IMG/VR virus record: IMGVR_UViG_3300045988_163359
Direction: 5' to 3' (one strand)
Length of the DNA stretch: 64,000 nt
DNA from: a virus
Positions 30,436 to 36,878 of this stretch are shown piece after piece. Under the pieces are notes generated by a model, which was given only the letters and a program-made list of their open reading frames with translations, was not told the origin of the DNA and searched no databases. Within the stretch, counting starts at the first letter, position 1. Each line of letters starts with the position of its first letter. A program made the position numbers and the translations under genes.

Positions 30436-30466
30436 TACGCAATTTAAAAATATTGCGTACTTATTT
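30435..30466 (+). terminator. rho-independent terminator
   Basis: GTACGCAAT-loop-ATTGCGTAC followed by a T-rich run. Confidence 0.65.
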
Positions 30467-30489
30467 ATATAAAAAATAGAGGTGTAAAA

Positions 30490-30675
30490 ATGTTTTATAA
30501 AGTAATGCATTATATTTCTAAATATAGTTTAATGTTGCTTATTTATAGTTTAGTAGTAGCTTTAGCTTTTAAAGTGTTTGGAATTAGTTACTCTGTACTA
30601 ATTTTAACAACTCTGATTTATATTTTTTTAATTATTAAAAAGATAATAAATTTTGATTCTAGCTGGTTACAATAA
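30490..30675 (+). CDS. small two-helix membrane protein
   Basis: 61 aa, GAGGTG RBS, two hydrophobic segments. Confidence 0.45.
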   Translation: MFYKVMHYISKYSLMLLIYSLVVALAFKVFGISYSVLILTTLIYIFLIIKKIINFDSSWLQ

Positions 30676-30685
30676 GTAAGATCAT

Positions 30686-30717
30686 AGAGCAGTTATTAAT
30701 TTAGCTGCTCTTTTTAT
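30686..30717 (+). terminator. rho-independent terminator
   Basis: AGAGCAG-loop-CTGCTCT followed by T5. Confidence 0.6.
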
Positions 30718-30816
30718 TTGAAAAAATAAAGGGTATGAAACTATAACTGTGGATTAATAAGAAAACGTACTTTGACAAGTGAATATAAAATTTATTACTT
30801 AAAATAACTTTAACTG

Positions 30817-30846
30817 TGGACTATATAACTTTAACTATGGTATAAT
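30817..30846 (+). promoter_or_regulatory. putative promoter with extended -10 (TGGTATAAT)
   Basis: TGGACT, 18-nt spacer, TGgTATAAT. Overlaps two internal IR-like boxes AACTTTAACT(G/A)TGG (30806-19, 30827-40). Confidence 0.4.
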
Positions 30847-30874
30847 GAGGTATATTTATAAGAAGGAGGTTATT

Positions 30875-31381
30875 ATGAATTTTAAACAAGCATTAGAAGA
30901 AATGAAAAAAGGGAACAAAGTTAAACTACCTTCATGGGGTGGTTATTGGTGTTGGGATGACACTAAGCAAACTATTATGATGCACTGTAGACCAAAAGAT
31001 GCAGATAAAGGACAAGGTCCTATATTAGATATAAGAGAAACACAAAGAGTTGAATATACTCTAAGTAATGTTTTATCTGATGAATGGGTAATTGCTAATA
31101 ATGAAAACTGTACTTTATTAGGTGGAACTCCTACTTTTAACTTTGGTGAAGCCATAAAATATTTAAAACGAGGATTAAAAGTATGTAGACAAGGTTGGAA
31201 TGGTAAAAGAATGTATTTAGCTTACGTAAATCCTTATCAATACAAAGTAGATGGAGAAGTACATAAAGATAGTTTATTTTTATCACCTTGGATAGGCATG
31301 AAAACAGCAGATAATAAATTTGTCCCTTGGCTAGCAAGTCAAACCGATATGTTAGCAGAAGATTGGATGTTTGCTGAATAG
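30875..31381 (+). CDS. tandem DUF2829 protein (Tad2-like, candidate anti-Thoeris sponge)
   Basis: Second half FNFGEAIKYLKRGLKVCRQGWNGK..GMKTADNKFVPWLASQTDMLAEDW is a canonical DUF2829 signature. First half FKQALEEMKKGNKVKLPSWGGYW...LSDEW is a shorter copy. Confidence 0.7.
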   Translation: MNFKQALEEMKKGNKVKLPSWGGYWCWDDTKQTIMMHCRPKDADKGQGPILDIRETQRVEYTLSNVLSDEWVIANNENCTLLGGTPTFNFGEAIKYLKRGLKVCRQGWNGKRMYLAYVNPYQYKVDGEVHKDSLFLSPWIGMKTADNKFVPWLASQTDMLAEDWMFAE

Positions 31382-31390
31382 GAGGTAAAA

Positions 31391-31612
31391 ATGGAGCAAT
31401 TGGTCAAAAGTAGTTTTGAAGAAAATATAGATTGGATTTTTGAAAATAATCGTAAAAGAAGAATAGAGGCATATAAAAAAGAGCATGAAAAGAAAGAAAT
31501 AGAATCTAAGAAAGTAATAGGCGAACAAATTGAAGAATTTATGGAAGCATATTATAATGACTTAGAAATAGATTATGAAGCTCTTTTTAAAGCATTAACC
31601 AAAAATAGTTAA
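31391..31612 (+). CDS. hypothetical protein
   Basis: 73 aa, AGGAGG RBS, helical and charged. Confidence 0.45.
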   Translation: MEQLVKSSFEENIDWIFENNRKRRIEAYKKEHEKKEIESKKVIGEQIEEFMEAYYNDLEIDYEALFKALTKNS

Positions 31613-31638
31613 AATTATCAGAAAGAGAAAAAGACAAC

Positions 31639-32952
31639 ATGAATATACTAAATTTACCAGAATTTGAAGTTTTAGACACAATACAAGATGACCACGATAT
31701 GACGGTAATAGTAAGACCAGTTAAAGAGCCTGTGGCTTGCCCAGAGTGTGGTGGAGTTGAATATTATAAGCATGGCAAATCCAAACGATTTGTAAGGGAT
31801 TTAAATAGCTTTGGGAAACGTGTAGGGATTGAAATACATACACATAGATATAAATGCAGATACTGCGGTACTACATTTAGTCAGCATTATAAGAGCATTG
31901 ACGATAGAGATAAAATCACTATACGTTTAAGAGAGCAAATAGAAAAAGAATCCCTTAAAAAGCCATTTGCCAATATAGCAGAAGAATATAGTGTTTCTCC
32001 TACCACAGTAAAGCGAATATTTAATGCTTACATAGAAAGGCTAGAAAAGGATATAACTTTCCTTACTCCAGTTATATTAGGTATAGACGAAGCACATCTT
32101 AACAAGAATATGAGAGCCGTTTACACCGATATAATTGGACGTAAGGTATTGGATATCCAGCCAAGCCGTAAGAAGGGCGATGTAAAGGATTTTCTAAATA
32201 AATTGCCTAACAAGGAGAACATAGAAGTAGTAACCATAGATATGTGGAGATACTACAAAGAGGCAGTATATGAGGAGTTGCCAAATGCTCAGGTAATCGT
32301 TGATAGATTCCATGTAATACAATTAGTCAACAATGCATTAGAAGGCGAGAGAAAGTCGTTTAAAGGCTCATTAGATAAGAAACAAAGGTCTAAACTGTTA
32401 AAAGATAGATTCTTGCTACTGAGGAACAAAGAGGATTTAAATGCTAGACAGATTTGGGATATGCAACTAATGTTTCTAGATTTTCCACAGTTAAAGTTAG
32501 CCTATGAGTTAAAGGAACAATTCCGAGATATCTATAAACACGATAACCGAGAAGATGCTTTAAAGGCTTATGAGGACTGGAAGAAGGCTGTTCCAAAAGA
32601 TATGAAATACTATCAAGATGTAATCAAAACAGTTGATAACTGGCAGTATGAGATATTTAACTATTTTACATGTAGAATTACAAATGCTTATACAGAGAGT
32701 TTAAATAACTTGATTAAGAACATAGAGAAAGCTGGCAGAGGTTACTCTTTTGAGGTACTTAGGGCAAAGGTCTTATTCGGTACAAGTGCTACTAGAAAAC
32801 CTAAATATGCAAGAGCAAATACAAGTAACAAAACATATACATTTACTACGGCATTTAGTTGGAATGATTTCGTAGGAAGTACAAAATTAATAGAAGGGTT
32901 TGGAGTAGATATTCCACAATTACTAGAGGTATTAGAGAGTGATAAATTTTAA
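31639..32952 (+). CDS. ISL3 family transposase
   Basis: N-terminal Zn-finger CPECGG...YKCRYCG. DDE region GIDEAHL.., IDMWRYYKEAV..VIVDRFHVIQL, TNAYTESLNNLIK..GRGY. Confidence 0.85.
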   Translation: MNILNLPEFEVLDTIQDDHDMTVIVRPVKEPVACPECGGVEYYKHGKSKRFVRDLNSFGKRVGIEIHTHRYKCRYCGTTFSQHYKSIDDRDKITIRLREQIEKESLKKPFANIAEEYSVSPTTVKRIFNAYIERLEKDITFLTPVILGIDEAHLNKNMRAVYTDIIGRKVLDIQPSRKKGDVKDFLNKLPNKENIEVVTIDMWRYYKEAVYEELPNAQVIVDRFHVIQLVNNALEGERKSFKGSLDKKQRSKLLKDRFLLLRNKEDLNARQIWDMQLMFLDFPQLKLAYELKEQFRDIYKHDNREDALKAYEDWKKAVPKDMKYYQDVIKTVDNWQYEIFNYFTCRITNAYTESLNNLIKNIEKAGRGYSFEVLRAKVLFGTSATRKPKYARANTSNKTYTFTTAFSWNDFVGSTKLIEGFGVDIPQLLEVLESDKF

Positions 32953-33234
32953 TTCACTCTCTTTTCTTTTCCACAATTAAAGTTGTATACCCAAAATAAA
33001 TAAAAACTAATTTAGATTGGTCCGGTGTATTATATAAAAATATATTATCTTGTATTTTTTCTTTATTTAAACCTTGCAGTTGGACAACCCCAAAACTAGT
33101 GAAATACTTATTTTAAGGTGTGAACTAGAAAAAACCTACTTTACATTAGTTATCACACGATAAATCATATATTTTTTAAAAGGTTATCACATATTTAATA
33201 CCTTATACATATCATATATGTAAGAGGTGATATT

Positions 33235-33810
33235 ATGACAAATAGAGATATGGAGATTTTAGAATTTTTAACATTAAGTAGAATATGTACTAGAAAACAA
33301 GTGCAAGAATTATTGTTTGAAAATAAGCATCAAAATGTACCTTTGAGAAGATTGAAAAGATTAGCTGATGATGGTTATGTAAATAGAAAAATGTTTAAAG
33401 TAGAAAATACTAGAAGTGTTTATGTTTATTATTTAGACAAAAAGCCAAGTAAGAAATTAGTGGAACACGATCTTTATATAACTGATTTTCTTGTAAAATT
33501 AATTAAAAACAATTATGAAATTATAGAGTTTAAGAGAAATTTTTCTTTAGGGAATATAATTTCTGATGGTTATATAAAGGTAAAAAAGAATAATAGAATA
33601 AAAAGAATACTGCTAGAAGTACAATTAAGCCCACATGATTGTATTAGTAAGTACTACAATTTTAAAGAGAATGTAATAAATAATACAAATTGGGAGGTCA
33701 TGCCTTTGCTTTACGTTATTAATAATCAAGGTTTAGATAAAAAATTAATAGACATGAAAGTTATTTATGATAATGTAAAGATTGAAAAGGTGGGTGAGAT
33801 AATTGGTTAA
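33235..33810 (+). CDS. replication-relaxation family protein
   Basis: RDMEILEFLTLSRICTRKQVQELLF...PLRRLKRLADDGYVNR matches the wHTH N-terminus of Replic_Relax proteins, which are usually paired with an FtsK-like ATPase. Confidence 0.5.
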   Translation: MTNRDMEILEFLTLSRICTRKQVQELLFENKHQNVPLRRLKRLADDGYVNRKMFKVENTRSVYVYYLDKKPSKKLVEHDLYITDFLVKLIKNNYEIIEFKRNFSLGNIISDGYIKVKKNNRIKRILLEVQLSPHDCISKYYNFKENVINNTNWEVMPLLYVINNQGLDKKLIDMKVIYDNVKIEKVGEIIG

Positions 33811-34813
33811 ATTATTTGTAAATAGCATTTTTAATGCTGTTAATTCTTTATATAATATGATTTTTAAAATAGATCAATGGGATAGATTGTTTTATGAAAT
33901 GAAATTATGTAATAGAAGTGAAGAATATCCTTTGTTAATTTATCAGTCTGAAGATAAAGAAAAATATTATTTTACCATTCCAATAGGTTTAAATATAGAT
34001 GATTTTAGAAAACACAAGTTAGATATAAGTACTTTTCTTAAAGTTCCAAAGACTAATTTAAAAATTGAATATAAAAATAACTTAGCTTTAATTAGCGTTA
34101 CAGATAGCAAAATTAATAATAATTATAATGATTACTTGTTTAATGATAAAAAAGGTGTTCCAATAGGGATAGATTTAAATAATGGAGATATAGTTTATTG
34201 GAAATATTATTCGTCTAATGAATGTCATTTATTAATTGCAGGTGCAACAGGTAGTGGCAAATCAGTCTGTCTAAATGTTGTTATAAATAATCTCATTAAA
34301 AGAAAAGATGTTGAATTGTATCTTCAAGATACTAAGTATGTTGACTTATATAAATATAAAGATAAAGTTAAATACTATGGTGAAGGTATTAATGGAATAG
34401 AAGAAATACTAAACAGGTTAATTAATGAAATGAATAAACGATATATTGAAATAAGAAAAAACAATAAAAATTTTAACTCAATATTTTTAGTTATTGAAGA
34501 ATTAGCTACTTTTGACCCTAAAGAAGATAAAACTATTTATAAGTTGCTAGGTGAATTATTATCTAAGGGCAGAGCAGCAAGTATTTATGTAATATTAACA
34601 ACACAAACACCATATGCGGAAATATTACCTGGACTATTAAAATCTAATATAAACACTAAAATCGGATTAAAAGTTAATACCAAAGAAGCATCAAAAGTGA
34701 TAAGCGGTGATTATGATGCTTTAACCGATCTTAGAGGTAAAGGACATGGTAAAATATTTACAGCTACAGATGTAAAAGAAATACAATGTTTTTATATACC
34801 TAATAGCAATTAG
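33803..34813 (+). CDS. FtsK/SpoIIIE-family DNA translocase-like ATPase
   Basis: Walker A LLIAGATGSGKSV, Walker B FLVIEELA. YVILTTQTP and GKGH motifs. Confidence 0.7.
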   Translation: MVKLFVNSIFNAVNSLYNMIFKIDQWDRLFYEMKLCNRSEEYPLLIYQSEDKEKYYFTIPIGLNIDDFRKHKLDISTFLKVPKTNLKIEYKNNLALISVTDSKINNNYNDYLFNDKKGVPIGIDLNNGDIVYWKYYSSNECHLLIAGATGSGKSVCLNVVINNLIKRKDVELYLQDTKYVDLYKYKDKVKYYGEGINGIEEILNRLINEMNKRYIEIRKNNKNFNSIFLVIEELATFDPKEDKTIYKLLGELLSKGRAASIYVILTTQTPYAEILPGLLKSNINTKIGLKVNTKEASKVISGDYDALTDLRGKGHGKIFTATDVKEIQCFYIPNSN

Positions 34814-34828
34814 GAATATGTTCCGATT
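34811..34828 (+). repeat. 18-bp repeat TAGGAATATGTTCCGATT, copy 1
   Basis: Perfect copy. Its TAG is the stop codon of the FtsK-like gene. Confidence 0.9.
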
Positions 34829-35142
34829 GCAAATTACAAATTGGGAAATTAAAATTAAATTGTAGATAAAATAATTTCTCATTTTTGAACCCCAACAAGC
34901 AGGAATCGGTTTAATAACCTTTCCCACGAAAAGGACTTACTTTTAAAGTGGGTCCTTTTATTGTTTTAGGGCGAATTTGAAAGAGGGTGATTCCAATGTG
35001 GACTTAAGAAAAACATTTATATTTTAATTGAATTTTAATTATTAAACATTATGTGTGTATATAGTATTTAAGGCAATTTTCCATTTTTAAAGGGGTTACT
35101 AATTTGTAGTCCCTTTTATTTTGCAAAGGAGTTTGAAAAAAT

Positions 35143-35412
35143 ATGAAATTAAATGTAAAAACTCCAGAAGGAGTTCATGTAGAACAAAGAGAAATCGAAG
35201 CTTACATAAAACATATTCATAAAAAATATCCAAATCGAGAAATTGATTATTTAAATATAACAATAGACGATAAAGGGTATGTAGATTTAGAATATAAACT
35301 TGTTCCTGTTTCATTTGAAAGAATCAGAAGAATTACAGGTTATTTAAGTGAAGTTCGACAATTTAACGATGGTAAAAAAGGAGAACTTAGAGATAGAGTA
35401 AAACATACTTAA
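35143..35412 (+). CDS. stand-alone NrdD-like glycyl-radical domain protein
   Basis: C-terminus RIRRITGYLSEVRQFNDGKKGELRDRVKH matches the class III RNR glycyl-radical loop (RxxGY...N.GK..E...R.KH). Only 89 aa. Confidence 0.55.
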   Translation: MKLNVKTPEGVHVEQREIEAYIKHIHKKYPNREIDYLNITIDDKGYVDLEYKLVPVSFERIRRITGYLSEVRQFNDGKKGELRDRVKHT

Positions 35413-35432
35413 GAAAATTGAGAGGTATTAAT

Positions 35433-35666
35433 ATGCAAACAGAAATAATTGTTGCTATTATAGCATTTATAGGGACTTTAGCTGGTTCTTATTTTGCAAA
35501 TAGTAAAACTACTGCAGTAATGCAAGAACAAATAAAAAGTTTAAAAGAAGATATAAATATTTTGTCAACTAGAGTTGATAAACATAATAATTTAGTAGAA
35601 AGAATGTCTGCAGTTGAACAATCAACAAAGTCAGCACATCATAGAATAGATCATTTAGAAGGATAG
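35433..35666 (+). CDS. XhlA-like lysis-associated membrane protein
   Basis: One N-terminal TM helix plus a coiled coil ending HHRIDHLE. Position just before the holin gene. Confidence 0.45.
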   Translation: MQTEIIVAIIAFIGTLAGSYFANSKTTAVMQEQIKSLKEDINILSTRVDKHNNLVERMSAVEQSTKSAHHRIDHLEG

Positions 35667-35676
35667 GAGGTTCATC

Positions 35677-35937
35677 ATGATAGATTTAAATGTTATTAAC
35701 AGTTATTTAGTCATTGGAGTTGTATTAGGTTGTTGTGGAATAGGATATGTTATAAAAACTAGCTTTGACTTTATTCCAAACAAGTATATTCCTTTCATAA
35801 TGGCTGTATTAGGTGTTGTATTAAACATAGCAATATCTAAGTCATTTGATATGAATATTTTCTTAGGAGGGCTTTTAAGTGGGCTTTCTAGTGTAGGATT
35901 GCACCAAAGTTTCAAGGCTTTAATTGAAAATAAATAG
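35677..35937 (+). CDS. holin
   Basis: 86 aa with 2-3 TM helices, directly upstream of the endolysin gene. Confidence 0.6.
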   Translation: MIDLNVINSYLVIGVVLGCCGIGYVIKTSFDFIPNKYIPFIMAVLGVVLNIAISKSFDMNIFLGGLLSGLSSVGLHQSFKALIENK

Positions 35938-35948
35938 GAGATGATATA

Positions 35949-36764
35949 ATGTCAATAGTAAAACCAACAATCGTTGAAAAATGGCAAAAGAAAAACAAAT
36001 ATGGTAGACCTGGAACTCCATTAAATTATACAAAAGTAGCAATTCACTATACTGGTGAAGCAGATGTTAAAGGTTCTGCTACAGTTAACTATTTTAACAA
36101 TGTAGTTGCAAATGGAACAAAAGTTAATGGTAAATATGTATATGCATCAGCACATTTTGTTATTGATCTAAACGGAACAATATATCAATTAATACCTCTA
36201 AATGAAATGTGTTATTGTACAAATTCAGCTAATAGTTACGCTATTGGAGTTGAAGTTGCAACAACAGGAAAAGATAATCATTACACAGATGCTACATATA
36301 AAAGTATGGTTCATTTATGTGCATGGTTATGCGACAGAAAAGGATTAGACTGTAAAAAAGATATAATAAGACATACAGATGTGGTGGGTAGAGCATATAA
36401 ATTATGCCCAATATATATGGTTCTTAATCCTTCAAAATACACTCAATTCAAATTAGATTGTGCTAATTTAAAAGCTGGTAAGATAAAAACATCAAATATA
36501 ATTAATTGTACTAATGGAAAAGGAAAAGTCACAGTTATACCTACTACTGCTACTACTAAAACTAAATACATTAGAATATTAAAAGATGTAAATATACATA
36601 GCAAAGCTGATTTTAATTCAAGCAGTGTGGTAGGTAAAGTTACCGCTGGTGGAGCTTATACTGTAGTAGAAACTATAAAAAGAACTGGAACAGATATGTA
36701 TAAATTAAAATCAGGAGTATATATCACTGCCAGCCCAAAATATGTAGAAGTATTTGAAAAATAA
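35949..36764 (+). CDS. endolysin: N-acetylmuramoyl-L-alanine amidase (Amidase_2) with SH3b-like C-terminus
   Basis: HYTGE..SAHFVID..AIGVEV..RHTDV..KLCP amidase_2 motifs. C-terminal YIRILKDVNIHSKADF..GAYTVVE..MYKLKSGVYI. Confidence 0.8.
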   Translation: MSIVKPTIVEKWQKKNKYGRPGTPLNYTKVAIHYTGEADVKGSATVNYFNNVVANGTKVNGKYVYASAHFVIDLNGTIYQLIPLNEMCYCTNSANSYAIGVEVATTGKDNHYTDATYKSMVHLCAWLCDRKGLDCKKDIIRHTDVVGRAYKLCPIYMVLNPSKYTQFKLDCANLKAGKIKTSNIINCTNGKGKVTVIPTTATTKTKYIRILKDVNIHSKADFNSSSVVGKVTAGGAYTVVETIKRTGTDMYKLKSGVYITASPKYVEVFEK

Positions 36765-36775
36765 TTCTATCGGAC

Positions 36776-36829
36776 GCGACCGATAAGCGACCGATAAGCG
36801 ACCGATAAGCGACCGATAGCGACCGATAA
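36776..36829 (+). repeat. tandem repeat, 5 copies of GCGACCGATAA (11 bp; copy 4 is 10 bp)
   Basis: Read directly. GC-rich island in AT-rich DNA. Inverted half-site TATCGG at 36768-73. Confidence 0.9.
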
Positions 36830-36836
36830 TATTAAA

Positions 36837-36866
36837 AGCTAGGGGATACTCTCCTCTAGCTTTTTT
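36837..36866 (+). terminator. rho-independent terminator of the lysis operon
   Basis: AGCTAGGGGA-loop-TCCTCTAGCT followed by T6. Confidence 0.65.
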
Positions 36867-36878
36867 GTTTTAGACAGC

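Follow-up and report, generated by a model that had tools for sequence, protein, structure and literature searches.

A cargo-carrying ISL3-family insertion sequence in a Clostridia-type siphophage and the variable passenger-gene slot of its relatives

Introduction

ISPst2 is a known insertion sequence (IS) of the ISL3 family that carries two passenger genes, with an inverted repeat (IR) beginning GGGTATCCGG and the direct repeat TTTTTAAA (PMC6305408). Elements of this ISPst2/ISPpu12 type reside on bacterial plasmids and chromosomes and hold one fixed passenger set, comprising ArsR and a permease in ISPst2. The present analysis concerns an element of related design found in a phage, in IMG/VR virus record IMGVR_UViG_3300045988_163359, of which a stretch of 64,000 nucleotides (referred to here as the window) was analysed. 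Positions 30731-32992 of the window very probably represent an intact ISL3-family insertion sequence of 2262 bp with passenger genes (a 'transporter IS'), in which a tandem Tad2-like gene and a gene for a 73-aa protein precede the transposase gene. Like the ISPst2-type elements, it combines an ISL3 transposase containing Zn-ribbon and helix-turn-helix (HTH) domains with passenger genes inside the IRs, and has IRs of about 22-24 nt starting with GGGTAT and A/T-rich 8-bp target duplications. Unlike them, it is phage-borne, carries its passengers upstream of the transposase gene in one operon, and has a promoter overlapped by extra copies of the IR core. Furthermore, in contrast to the fixed set of the ISPst2-type elements, the slot for passengers holds about 30 alternative families on near-identical backbones.

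Two other kinds of system offer partial parallels. Mobile insertion cassettes (IS231-MIC231 of Bacillus cereus) and cargo-bearing miniature inverted-repeat transposable elements lack a transposase but retain both IRs, a passenger and their own target duplication, as do the mini-elements described below. The latter differ in being phage-resident and in arising by internal deletion of the transposase gene in loaded full-length elements, and they belong to the ISL3 family, unlike MIC231, which belongs to the IS4/IS231 family. Integron cassettes and phage 'moron' hot-spots likewise supply one resident promoter with interchangeable, mostly small accessory genes, and the cargo described here includes counter-defence-type functions (Tad2, orphan DNA methyltransferases, nucleases), as in accessory hot-spots. 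By contrast with integrons, integrase and attC sites are both lacking; it is the entire platform that moves, by DDE transposition and with duplication of the target, and exchange apparently proceeds via general recombination at ribosome-binding sites and conserved arms. An integron-type system was rejected because the DDE transposase is the sole recombinase, no repeat borders the cargo on its 3' side and the junctions lie at ribosome-binding sites. A composite structure made of two elements was also considered and rejected.

No description of this element family, or of cargo slots in phage ISL3 elements, was found in the limited collection of literature searched. New features are the residence in phages, the promoter-coupled slot upstream of the transposase gene, the overlap of the promoter with additional IR-core copies, the wide range of cargo carried by a backbone that hardly varies, and the anti-defence payload. 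The element is identified as a genuine ISL3 insertion with cargo at very high confidence, and confidence in the regulatory and functional interpretations is moderate.

Element boundaries and target site

The left inverted repeat (IRL) GGGTATGAAACTATAACTGTGG lies on the + strand at 30731-30752 and includes the first copy of a 14-nt core (30739-30752). The right inverted repeat (IRR) CCACAATTAAAGTTGTATACCC lies at 32971-32992 on the - strand, and its reverse complement matches the IRL at 18 of 22 positions, with a repeat search giving a pairing of 23 nt at 83%. The octamer AAAATAAA flanks the element on both sides, at 30723-30730 and, abutting the IRR, at 32993-33000. These IR coordinates, the 18/22 match and the duplicated octamer had all been reported in a first-pass annotation of the window, made from the sequence alone, and each was recovered here. 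That annotation had cautioned that an octamer consisting only of A and T could match by chance. The caution is removed by exact empty sites carrying the octamer once, and is further countered by the frequency of perfect duplications among related insertions (39 of 55 sites, see below).

The empty sites were found with a gapped pattern built from the two flanks of the window element. Four viral contigs (L252-L255) contain the exact uninterrupted target with one AAAATAAA, in which GCTGCTCTTTTTATTTGAAAAAATAAA is followed directly by TAAAAACTAATTTAGATTGG. In L254, window positions 30447-30730 and 32993-36872 map contiguously with an 8-bp overlap. The left flank is 99-100% identical to the empty-site contigs over the 57-299 nt compared, and the right flank about 89-93% identical; the closeness of the left flank and the clean junction with its single octamer point to an insertion of recent date. 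Because the duplications and the empty site bound the whole unit, the cargo moves with the element. The checks proposed in the first-pass annotation, namely other copies with different flanks, empty sites, and an uninterrupted target in related phages, thus all returned positive results, comprising 59 insertion sites and the four empty-site contigs.

The insertion point is the A/T-rich tail of an intrinsic terminator belonging to an upstream 61-aa open reading frame (ORF). This terminator, identified by a terminator scan at 30686-30711 on the + strand, lies outside the element, and the same hairpin precedes the empty site in L252-L255. At four other loci (L026, L030, L045 and L053), an element with a 275-aa deoxyribosyltransferase-like cargo has inserted behind this terminator, within a few bases of the window site, and is flanked by the duplication AAAAATTA. 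The tail of the terminator (window 30675-30730 region) is a target that has been used repeatedly. In a related phage (L027), the site used in the window is unoccupied, except that about 50 nt of adjacent sequence differ, and a Tad2-bearing copy with a different duplication lies 4 kb from the equivalent position. Searches of the 3-kb region with megablast gave no match in GenBank phages or PLSDB plasmids.

Copies of the element and the variable cargo slot

Copies were collected by a transposase-guided scan of viral contigs and by IRL-pattern scans of viral, genome and metagenome collections. The transposase-guided scan gave 38 loci with transposases 95-97% identical, and 25 of the 34 complete elements in this first set are flanked by perfect 8-bp duplications, involving many different A/T-rich octamers. 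In these 38 loci the IRR invariably ends 40 nt past the transposase stop codon. The IRL sequence is exact in nearly all related loci, and homology between loci starts at its first base. The fuller census comprises 63 distinct instances at 59 sites, with element sizes of 535-2641 bp (1743-2641 bp for full-length copies). Perfect duplications are present at 39 of the 55 sites for which both flanks are available, representing 34 different octamers, in which positions 2-7 are almost exclusively A or T.

In every copy, the cargo sits between the IRL and the transposase gene, the arrangement that defines a transporter IS. The cargo slot corresponds to the segment between the -10 box and the transposase ATG, and is unrelated in sequence between copies. 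Conservation resumes at most about 20 nt before the ATG, at the weak ribosome-binding site of the transposase gene, and the stop codon of the cargo gene directly adjoins the ATG, or overlaps with it, in some copies. The distance from IRL to transposase gene accordingly ranges from 390 to about 1290 nt. No empty slot was found among the full-length copies of the census.

Clustering of the slot ORFs yielded about 30 unrelated protein families. Cargo identified by Pfam includes tandem Tad2, nucleoside-deoxyribosyltransferase-like and PAPS-reductase-like proteins, XRE and excisionase-type HTH proteins, GIY-YIG/NUMOD and HNH endonucleases, and YopX. A 316-aa slot ORF in L214 resembles, by eye, a C5 DNA methyltransferase. 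A 154-aa phrog_2715 protein, 84-aa proteins and a pair of proteins of 96 and 86 aa are among the other families. The remaining cargo consists mostly of small proteins without assigned function, forming about 20 families, and PHROG and Pfam searches gave no function for most of the small cargo genes. The first-pass annotation had read the IRs as enclosing two passenger genes upstream of the transposase gene. This reading is borne out by more than 50 copies bounded by the distal IRL, but it understated the case in two respects: the slot is hyper-variable across a phage-borne clade, and the gene that had been assigned to DUF2829 belongs to the Tad2 family.

More divergent relatives follow the same plan. 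Elements with 79%-identical transposases have the same ends and promoter and always carry YopX cargo, and occupy at least four sites with duplications. Those with 51-59%-identical transposases have an IRL starting GGGTAT, two subterminal repeats, a small cargo and the transposase gene. In elements with transposases about 57% identical (L192 5020-5385; L204, L218 and L226), the slot opens with about 360 nt of G+C-rich non-coding sequence. In L192, this includes a transfer RNA (tRNA)-like stretch, GGTGGCGGAATAGGTAGACGC...GCAGGGTGCAAATCCCTGCCCACA, ahead of a 71-aa gene. Scans of the L192 non-coding cargo with ARAGORN for tRNA and with Rfam gave nothing; this type of cargo may be a structured RNA.

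The left-end module and the transcription unit

Alignment of 25 left ends revealed a conserved module of 116 nt (30731-30846, + strand in the window), extending from the IRL through TGGTATAAT and comprising the IRL, a spacer, two subterminal core repeats and a promoter. Conservation stops at or just past TATAAT, although in many copies a short leader after the -10 box is also conserved before the sequences become unrelated. The module is nearly unchanged even where the transposase is 79% identical.

Both subterminal repeats are direct copies of the IR core on the + strand. Repeat 2, AACTTTAACTGTGG (30806-30819), overlaps the -35 region and is a putative transposase-binding site. Repeat 3, AACTTTAACTATGG (30827-30840), follows 21 nt after repeat 2, and its last bases form the TG of an extended -10 element. 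The promoter (30817-30846, + strand) consists of TGGACT, an 18-nt spacer and TATAAT, with TG at 30839-30840; at 10/12 plus TG, it is the best promoter match of the region. It is conserved in all copies and in the C. difficile phage phiCD211, and is the sole conserved promoter of the unit. The two extra core copies over a TGnTATAAT promoter had been noted in the first-pass annotation at these same positions. The conserved promoter is predicted to drive both the cargo and the transposase gene.

A fifth, exact copy of the 14-nt core, missed by the first-pass annotation, is present in inverted orientation (32485-32498, - strand) inside the transposase gene, in the codons for F-P-Q-L-K-L. It lies 486 nt from the core of the IRR, and is also found in the 79%-identical relatives. 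With up to two mismatches allowed, the 14-mer has six matches in the 64-kb window, five of them inside the element, compared to a chance expectation of 0.72, and none of 100 shuffles reached six.

All three genes of the element are on the + strand. A terminator-like hairpin with a 9-bp stem spanning the transposase stop codon, followed by UUUUCUUUU, occupies 32934-32970 on the + strand. It has a dG of -13.8 kcal/mol (z = -3.2), and its sequence is kept in relatives. The hairpin is predicted to close the transcription unit just inside the IRR. The element is therefore one self-contained unit, consisting of the IRL, the core copies with an extended -10 promoter, the cargo, the transposase gene, the hairpin and the IRR.

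The transposase

The transposase gene (31639-32952, + strand) encodes an ISL3-family DDE transposase of 437 aa with Zn-ribbon, HTH and DDE_Tnp_ISL3 domains, and its stop codon lies 18 nt from the IRR. Its ribosome-binding site is weak and purine-rich. The protein matches PF01610 with an E-value of 1.2e-62 over 239 of 240 model positions, PF14690 with 4.5e-12 and PF13542 with 1.8e-09. The motifs GIDE, IDMW and YTESLNNLIK, judged by eye, would fit a D, D, E(+7 K) triad. A search of solved structures with the transposase gave no match.

The DDE_Tnp_ISL3 domain following a Zn-ribbon and HTH, the terminal IRs of 22-23 nt (within the range of about 15-39 bp for the family), which are the exact limits of homology in more than 50 copies, and the A/T-rich 8-bp target duplication together indicate that the element conforms to every testable criterion of the ISL3 family. 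The ISL3-type assignment made in the first-pass annotation thus holds, on the basis of the full ISL3 Pfam domain set, the IRs and the 8-bp duplication. For this family, transposition via an excised circle (copy-out-paste-in) has been reported (10.1101/2023.06.07.543989).

Cargo of the window element

The first cargo gene (30875-31381, + strand; ribosome-binding site AAGGAGG at 30862-30868) encodes a tandem Tad2-like (DUF2829) protein of 168 aa. The whole protein matches PF11195 with E = 1.1e-30. Scored separately against the cut-off of 25 bits, the N-terminal half gives 27.2 and the C-terminal half 87.8 bits, so that both halves pass and the tandem-DUF2829 description of this cargo gene in the first-pass annotation stands. 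The C-terminal half (residues 87-167) aligns end to end with the solved structures of ModTad2 (9eib), Tad2 (8v3e) and SPO1 Gp34.65 (8sme), with E = 1e-14 to 1e-16, and AcrIIA7 (9kzr, 158 aa) also matches the protein, in two stretches. The solved Tad2 proteins differ in being single-domain proteins of about 90 aa, whereas the cargo protein is a two-domain fusion with a divergent N-terminal copy. The Tad2 family acts as a sponge for the cyclic ADP-ribose signal gcADPR and other immune signals, rescuing phage from Thoeris (10.1101/2023.05.01.538930; PMC10680739), and Tad2 homologues bind differing signals (PMC12393519). The second cargo gene (31391-31612, + strand; ribosome-binding site AGGAGG) encodes a 73-aa protein with no Pfam or PHROG match.

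A scan of viral contigs with the tandem Tad2 protein gave 346 relatives. The closest of these (92-96% nucleotide identity) mostly lack the IRL, the repeats and the transposase gene and occur in varied phage contexts. The IS-free Tad2 genes share with the window only the segment from 30864, in the ribosome-binding site, to about 31395, just past the stop codon, and several IS-free phages have a homologue of the 73-aa gene some 250 nt downstream of the Tad2 gene. Both passengers are accordingly genes resident in this phage population that were captured together, with the left joint at the ribosome-binding site. The occurrence of IS-free Tad2 genes at other loci, with homology so limited, points to capture into the element and not to a false boundary. 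Cargo appears to have been remodelled within one cargo type too, since a Tad2-bearing copy in L055/L115 (contig 3300045988_122513) has a 169-aa gene instead of the 73-aa gene, and in L012 and L027 the C-terminal domain of Tad2 is replaced in the middle third.

Recombination, mini-elements and relics

The transposase genes differ by 0-9.7% at the nucleotide level, and cargo type does not track transposase similarity. For example, three Tad2-bearing copies are 5.8-8.6% apart, and one of them is only 3.1% from an HTH-bearing copy. This disagreement indicates recombination between copies. Some copies without a duplication share one flank (L012/L023, L013/L019+L024 and L037/L250). The octamers TAAAAAAT and ATTTTTTA flanking L014 4554-6354 are reverse complements of each other, which marks an inversion between two copies lying in opposite orientation in the same phage. 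Copies of the element also supply movable stretches of homology by which phage genomes are reshuffled.

Mini-elements of 535-843 bp lack the transposase gene but still contain the ends, the promoter and a cargo gene, in several cases with duplications of their own. These relatives, though not the window copy, conform to the definition of mobile insertion cassettes. They include L012 8152-8886 (735 bp, duplication AAAATATA), L035 (843 bp, CTAATTTT), L036 (633 bp, TAAATTAA), L039 4441-5106 (666 bp, perfect duplication ATAATAAA) and L124, a decaying copy that carries a tandem Tad2 gene (729 bp, AATAATTA). Their features imply that the mini-elements would be mobilised in trans. L039 has lost the 67-nt spacer through recombination of the IRL core with repeat 2, so that the IRL core is now fused directly to repeat 3. 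The spacer includes a perfect TTGACA, and given the perfect duplication of L039 it may be dispensable for transposition.

Relics are seen in L060, L085 and L086 (the last from a Clostridia metagenome-assembled genome, MAG). Each has a solo IRL and a gene for a 128-aa cargo protein, followed by 40 codons of the transposase gene, MNILNLPEFEVIYPNN..., that run straight into a 700-aa phage gene. In these relics, the cargo appears to have been fixed after decay of the element.

Proposed mechanism

The comparative evidence shows DDE-type insertion, a variable slot, capture of resident genes, recombination between copies, and formation of non-autonomous derivatives. In the window, the element transposed into the A/T-rich terminator tail, duplicating the 8 bp AAAATAAA. 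Its anatomy suggests that the 14-nt core is recognised by the transposase, at the two ends as well as where two further copies overlap the promoter, and that the transposase may both synapse the ends and repress its own operon, since two core copies lie over the -35 region and spacer, two helical turns apart. By analogy with the ISL3 family, movement would be copy-out-paste-in through a circle. The Tad2 cargo, judging from its family, would sequester TIR- or cGAS-type immune signals, and could thereby pay for residence in a size-limited phage genome and spread between co-infecting phages. New cargo would enter via illegitimate or microhomology recombination at ribosome-binding sites, and would then be spread by homologous recombination between the conserved arms. 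Only loaded elements would be expected to persist because a phage tolerates little useless DNA.

Several observations weigh against this account. Perfect duplications are missing at 16 of the 55 sites, and shared flanks explain only some of these. Most copies come from one metagenome data set (3300045988), so that independence refers to distinct flanks and not to distinct samples. The core copy inside the transposase gene may lack function, being conserved no more than the coding background (rank 292 of 1300 windows in a constraint test). The N-terminal Tad2 half is only just above the Pfam cut-off. Finally, binding of the 14-mer by the transposase, autorepression, circles and ligand binding by Tad2 are inferred, as is the route by which new cargo first enters the slot.

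Alternative explanations

One alternative is that the diversity of cargo is generated by active site-specific cassette exchange, either integron-like or with the 14-mers serving as alternative ends, instead of by passive recombination. This would account for the strikingly constant limits of the slot, which begins at the -10 box or leader and ends at the ribosome-binding site of the transposase gene, for the extra copies of the end motif at the left border of the slot and inside the transposase gene, and for the fact that every copy is loaded; the loss of 67 bp in L039 also shows that the IRL core and repeat 2 can recombine. However, the cargo does not have any repeat or attC-like site at its 3' edge, and a second recombinase is lacking. 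From one cargo type to another the junctions shift by a few to tens of nt, and they fall at ribosome-binding sites, which is what selection on expression after illegitimate joins would produce. In addition, mosaic transposase genes reveal ordinary homologous recombination. Active exchange is therefore considered unlikely, and passive recombination is preferred.

A second alternative is that the element was once mobile but is now a fossil in this phage lineage, its transposase having been domesticated, for example as a regulator of the cargo promoter. Such a role would suit the transposase-site-like repeats over the promoter. Moreover, phages of the phiCD211 type keep the promoter, repeats, cargo and a 63%-identical transposase in the absence of terminal IRs, and relics with truncated transposases exist (L060, L085 and L086). 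Against this, the IRs of the window copy are intact, its duplication is perfect and its transposase ORF is full-length. Its left flank, 99-100% identical to that of the empty-site contigs, and its clean junction suggest recency. Near-identical elements (0-0.2% transposase divergence) also occur at different sites. A domesticated, immobile element is accordingly judged very improbable.

Practically no credence is left for a third alternative, in which the true IS would consist of the transposase gene and a nearby left end, with ordinary upstream genes (DUF2829 and 73-aa) and a distal IRL and octamer matching by chance. In its favour, the left end of an ISL3 element is normally found no more than about 100 bp from the transposase gene, the IRs agree at just 18/22 positions, and the octamer is made up of A and T alone. 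It is refuted by the lack of any IR-core copy from 30841 to the transposase ATG, by homology that begins exactly at the distal IRL in more than 50 copies, by the duplications flanking the whole unit, and by the exact empty site, which lacks all 2262 bp and one octamer. Two outcomes named in the first-pass annotation as evidence against its boundaries were likewise not encountered, as the left boundary in more than 50 copies is the distal IRL and not an IR just upstream of 31639, and the DUF2829 gene occurs without IRs at other loci, this locus being empty in relatives. The reading of 30731-32992 as one insertion with its cargo is therefore retained.

Significance

Insertion sequences are generally regarded as scarce in phage genomes, and recombination as the main route by which anti-defence genes pass from phage to phage. 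The window locus belongs to an active-looking, phage-resident transposon lineage in which every copy has a passenger gene that is predicted to be expressed. It offers a concrete vehicle by which counter-defence genes spread horizontally through phage populations, a natural pairing of promoter and slot on which engineered phages could be modelled, and a short list of small cargo genes for direct anti-defence screening.

A broader interpretation, put forward tentatively and with somewhat less than even expectation, is that this ISL3 clade is a phage-specialised 'plug-in' platform, which survives in phage genomes of limited size only when the promoter-proximal slot holds a phage-useful gene, and which shuttles counter-defence and host-takeover genes between co-infecting phages, leaving them behind as mini-elements or relics. 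If so, Tad2, orphan methyltransferases and nucleases would be examples of the shuttled cargo, and the approximately 20 cargo families without assigned function would amount, through guilt by association, to a catalogue of new anti-defence genes. This reasoning, which builds on cargo lying directly upstream of the transposase gene, would extend to the ISL3 elements in Bacillus, Lysinibacillus, C. difficile and Vibrio phages.

Host range, neighbouring genes and distant relatives

The copies lie in contexts of phage genes, including those for terminase, portal, lysin, CI repressor and integrase. The portal protein of the window is 46% identical to portals of C. perfringens siphophages, and the phage is a Clostridia-type siphophage. 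According to contig titles, the sources are human and pig gut, bioreactor and fermentation metagenomes. No relative of the transposase was found in bacterial contigs representing one genome per species, in which the exact IRL occurs once, as the relic in the Clostridia MAG; a chromosomal reservoir was therefore not found in this collection.

Just to the right of the insertion, window 33235-34813 contains a gene with a Replic_Relax domain and a gene for an FtsK/SpoIIIE-like ATPase, which are functions of the type found on plasmids and integrative and conjugative elements, here inside a phage. For these genes, neither a PLSDB nucleotide search nor a distant plasmid search gave a match.

A 63%-identical ISL3 transposase is present in the big plasmid-phages of C. 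difficile, phiCD211 (L001, LN681537.2 62.4-64.7 kb), phiCDIF1296T and LIBA6276. In the phiCD211-type copy, a gene for an ExoX-like exonuclease lies upstream of the transposase gene, preceded by the same double repeat and TGGTATAAT promoter. Terminal IRs were looked for around the phiCD211 copy and none were found, and it is therefore treated as an immobilised relic of the same architecture.

More distant ISL3 transposases (35-43% identity) are present in Bacillus phage BSP9 (L256), Lysinibacillus phage vB_LspM-01 (L257) and Vibrio phage K256 (L258), each with a DNA methyltransferase gene directly upstream. The placement of cargo upstream of the transposase gene may thus be general for phage ISL3 elements. 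In BSP9, the methyltransferase and transposase genes both lie between IRs, and the duplication is GGTAAAGA. The vB_LspM-01 element has an IRL, one subterminal repeat and a TGGTATAAT promoter, and its flanking octamers match at 7 of 8 positions.

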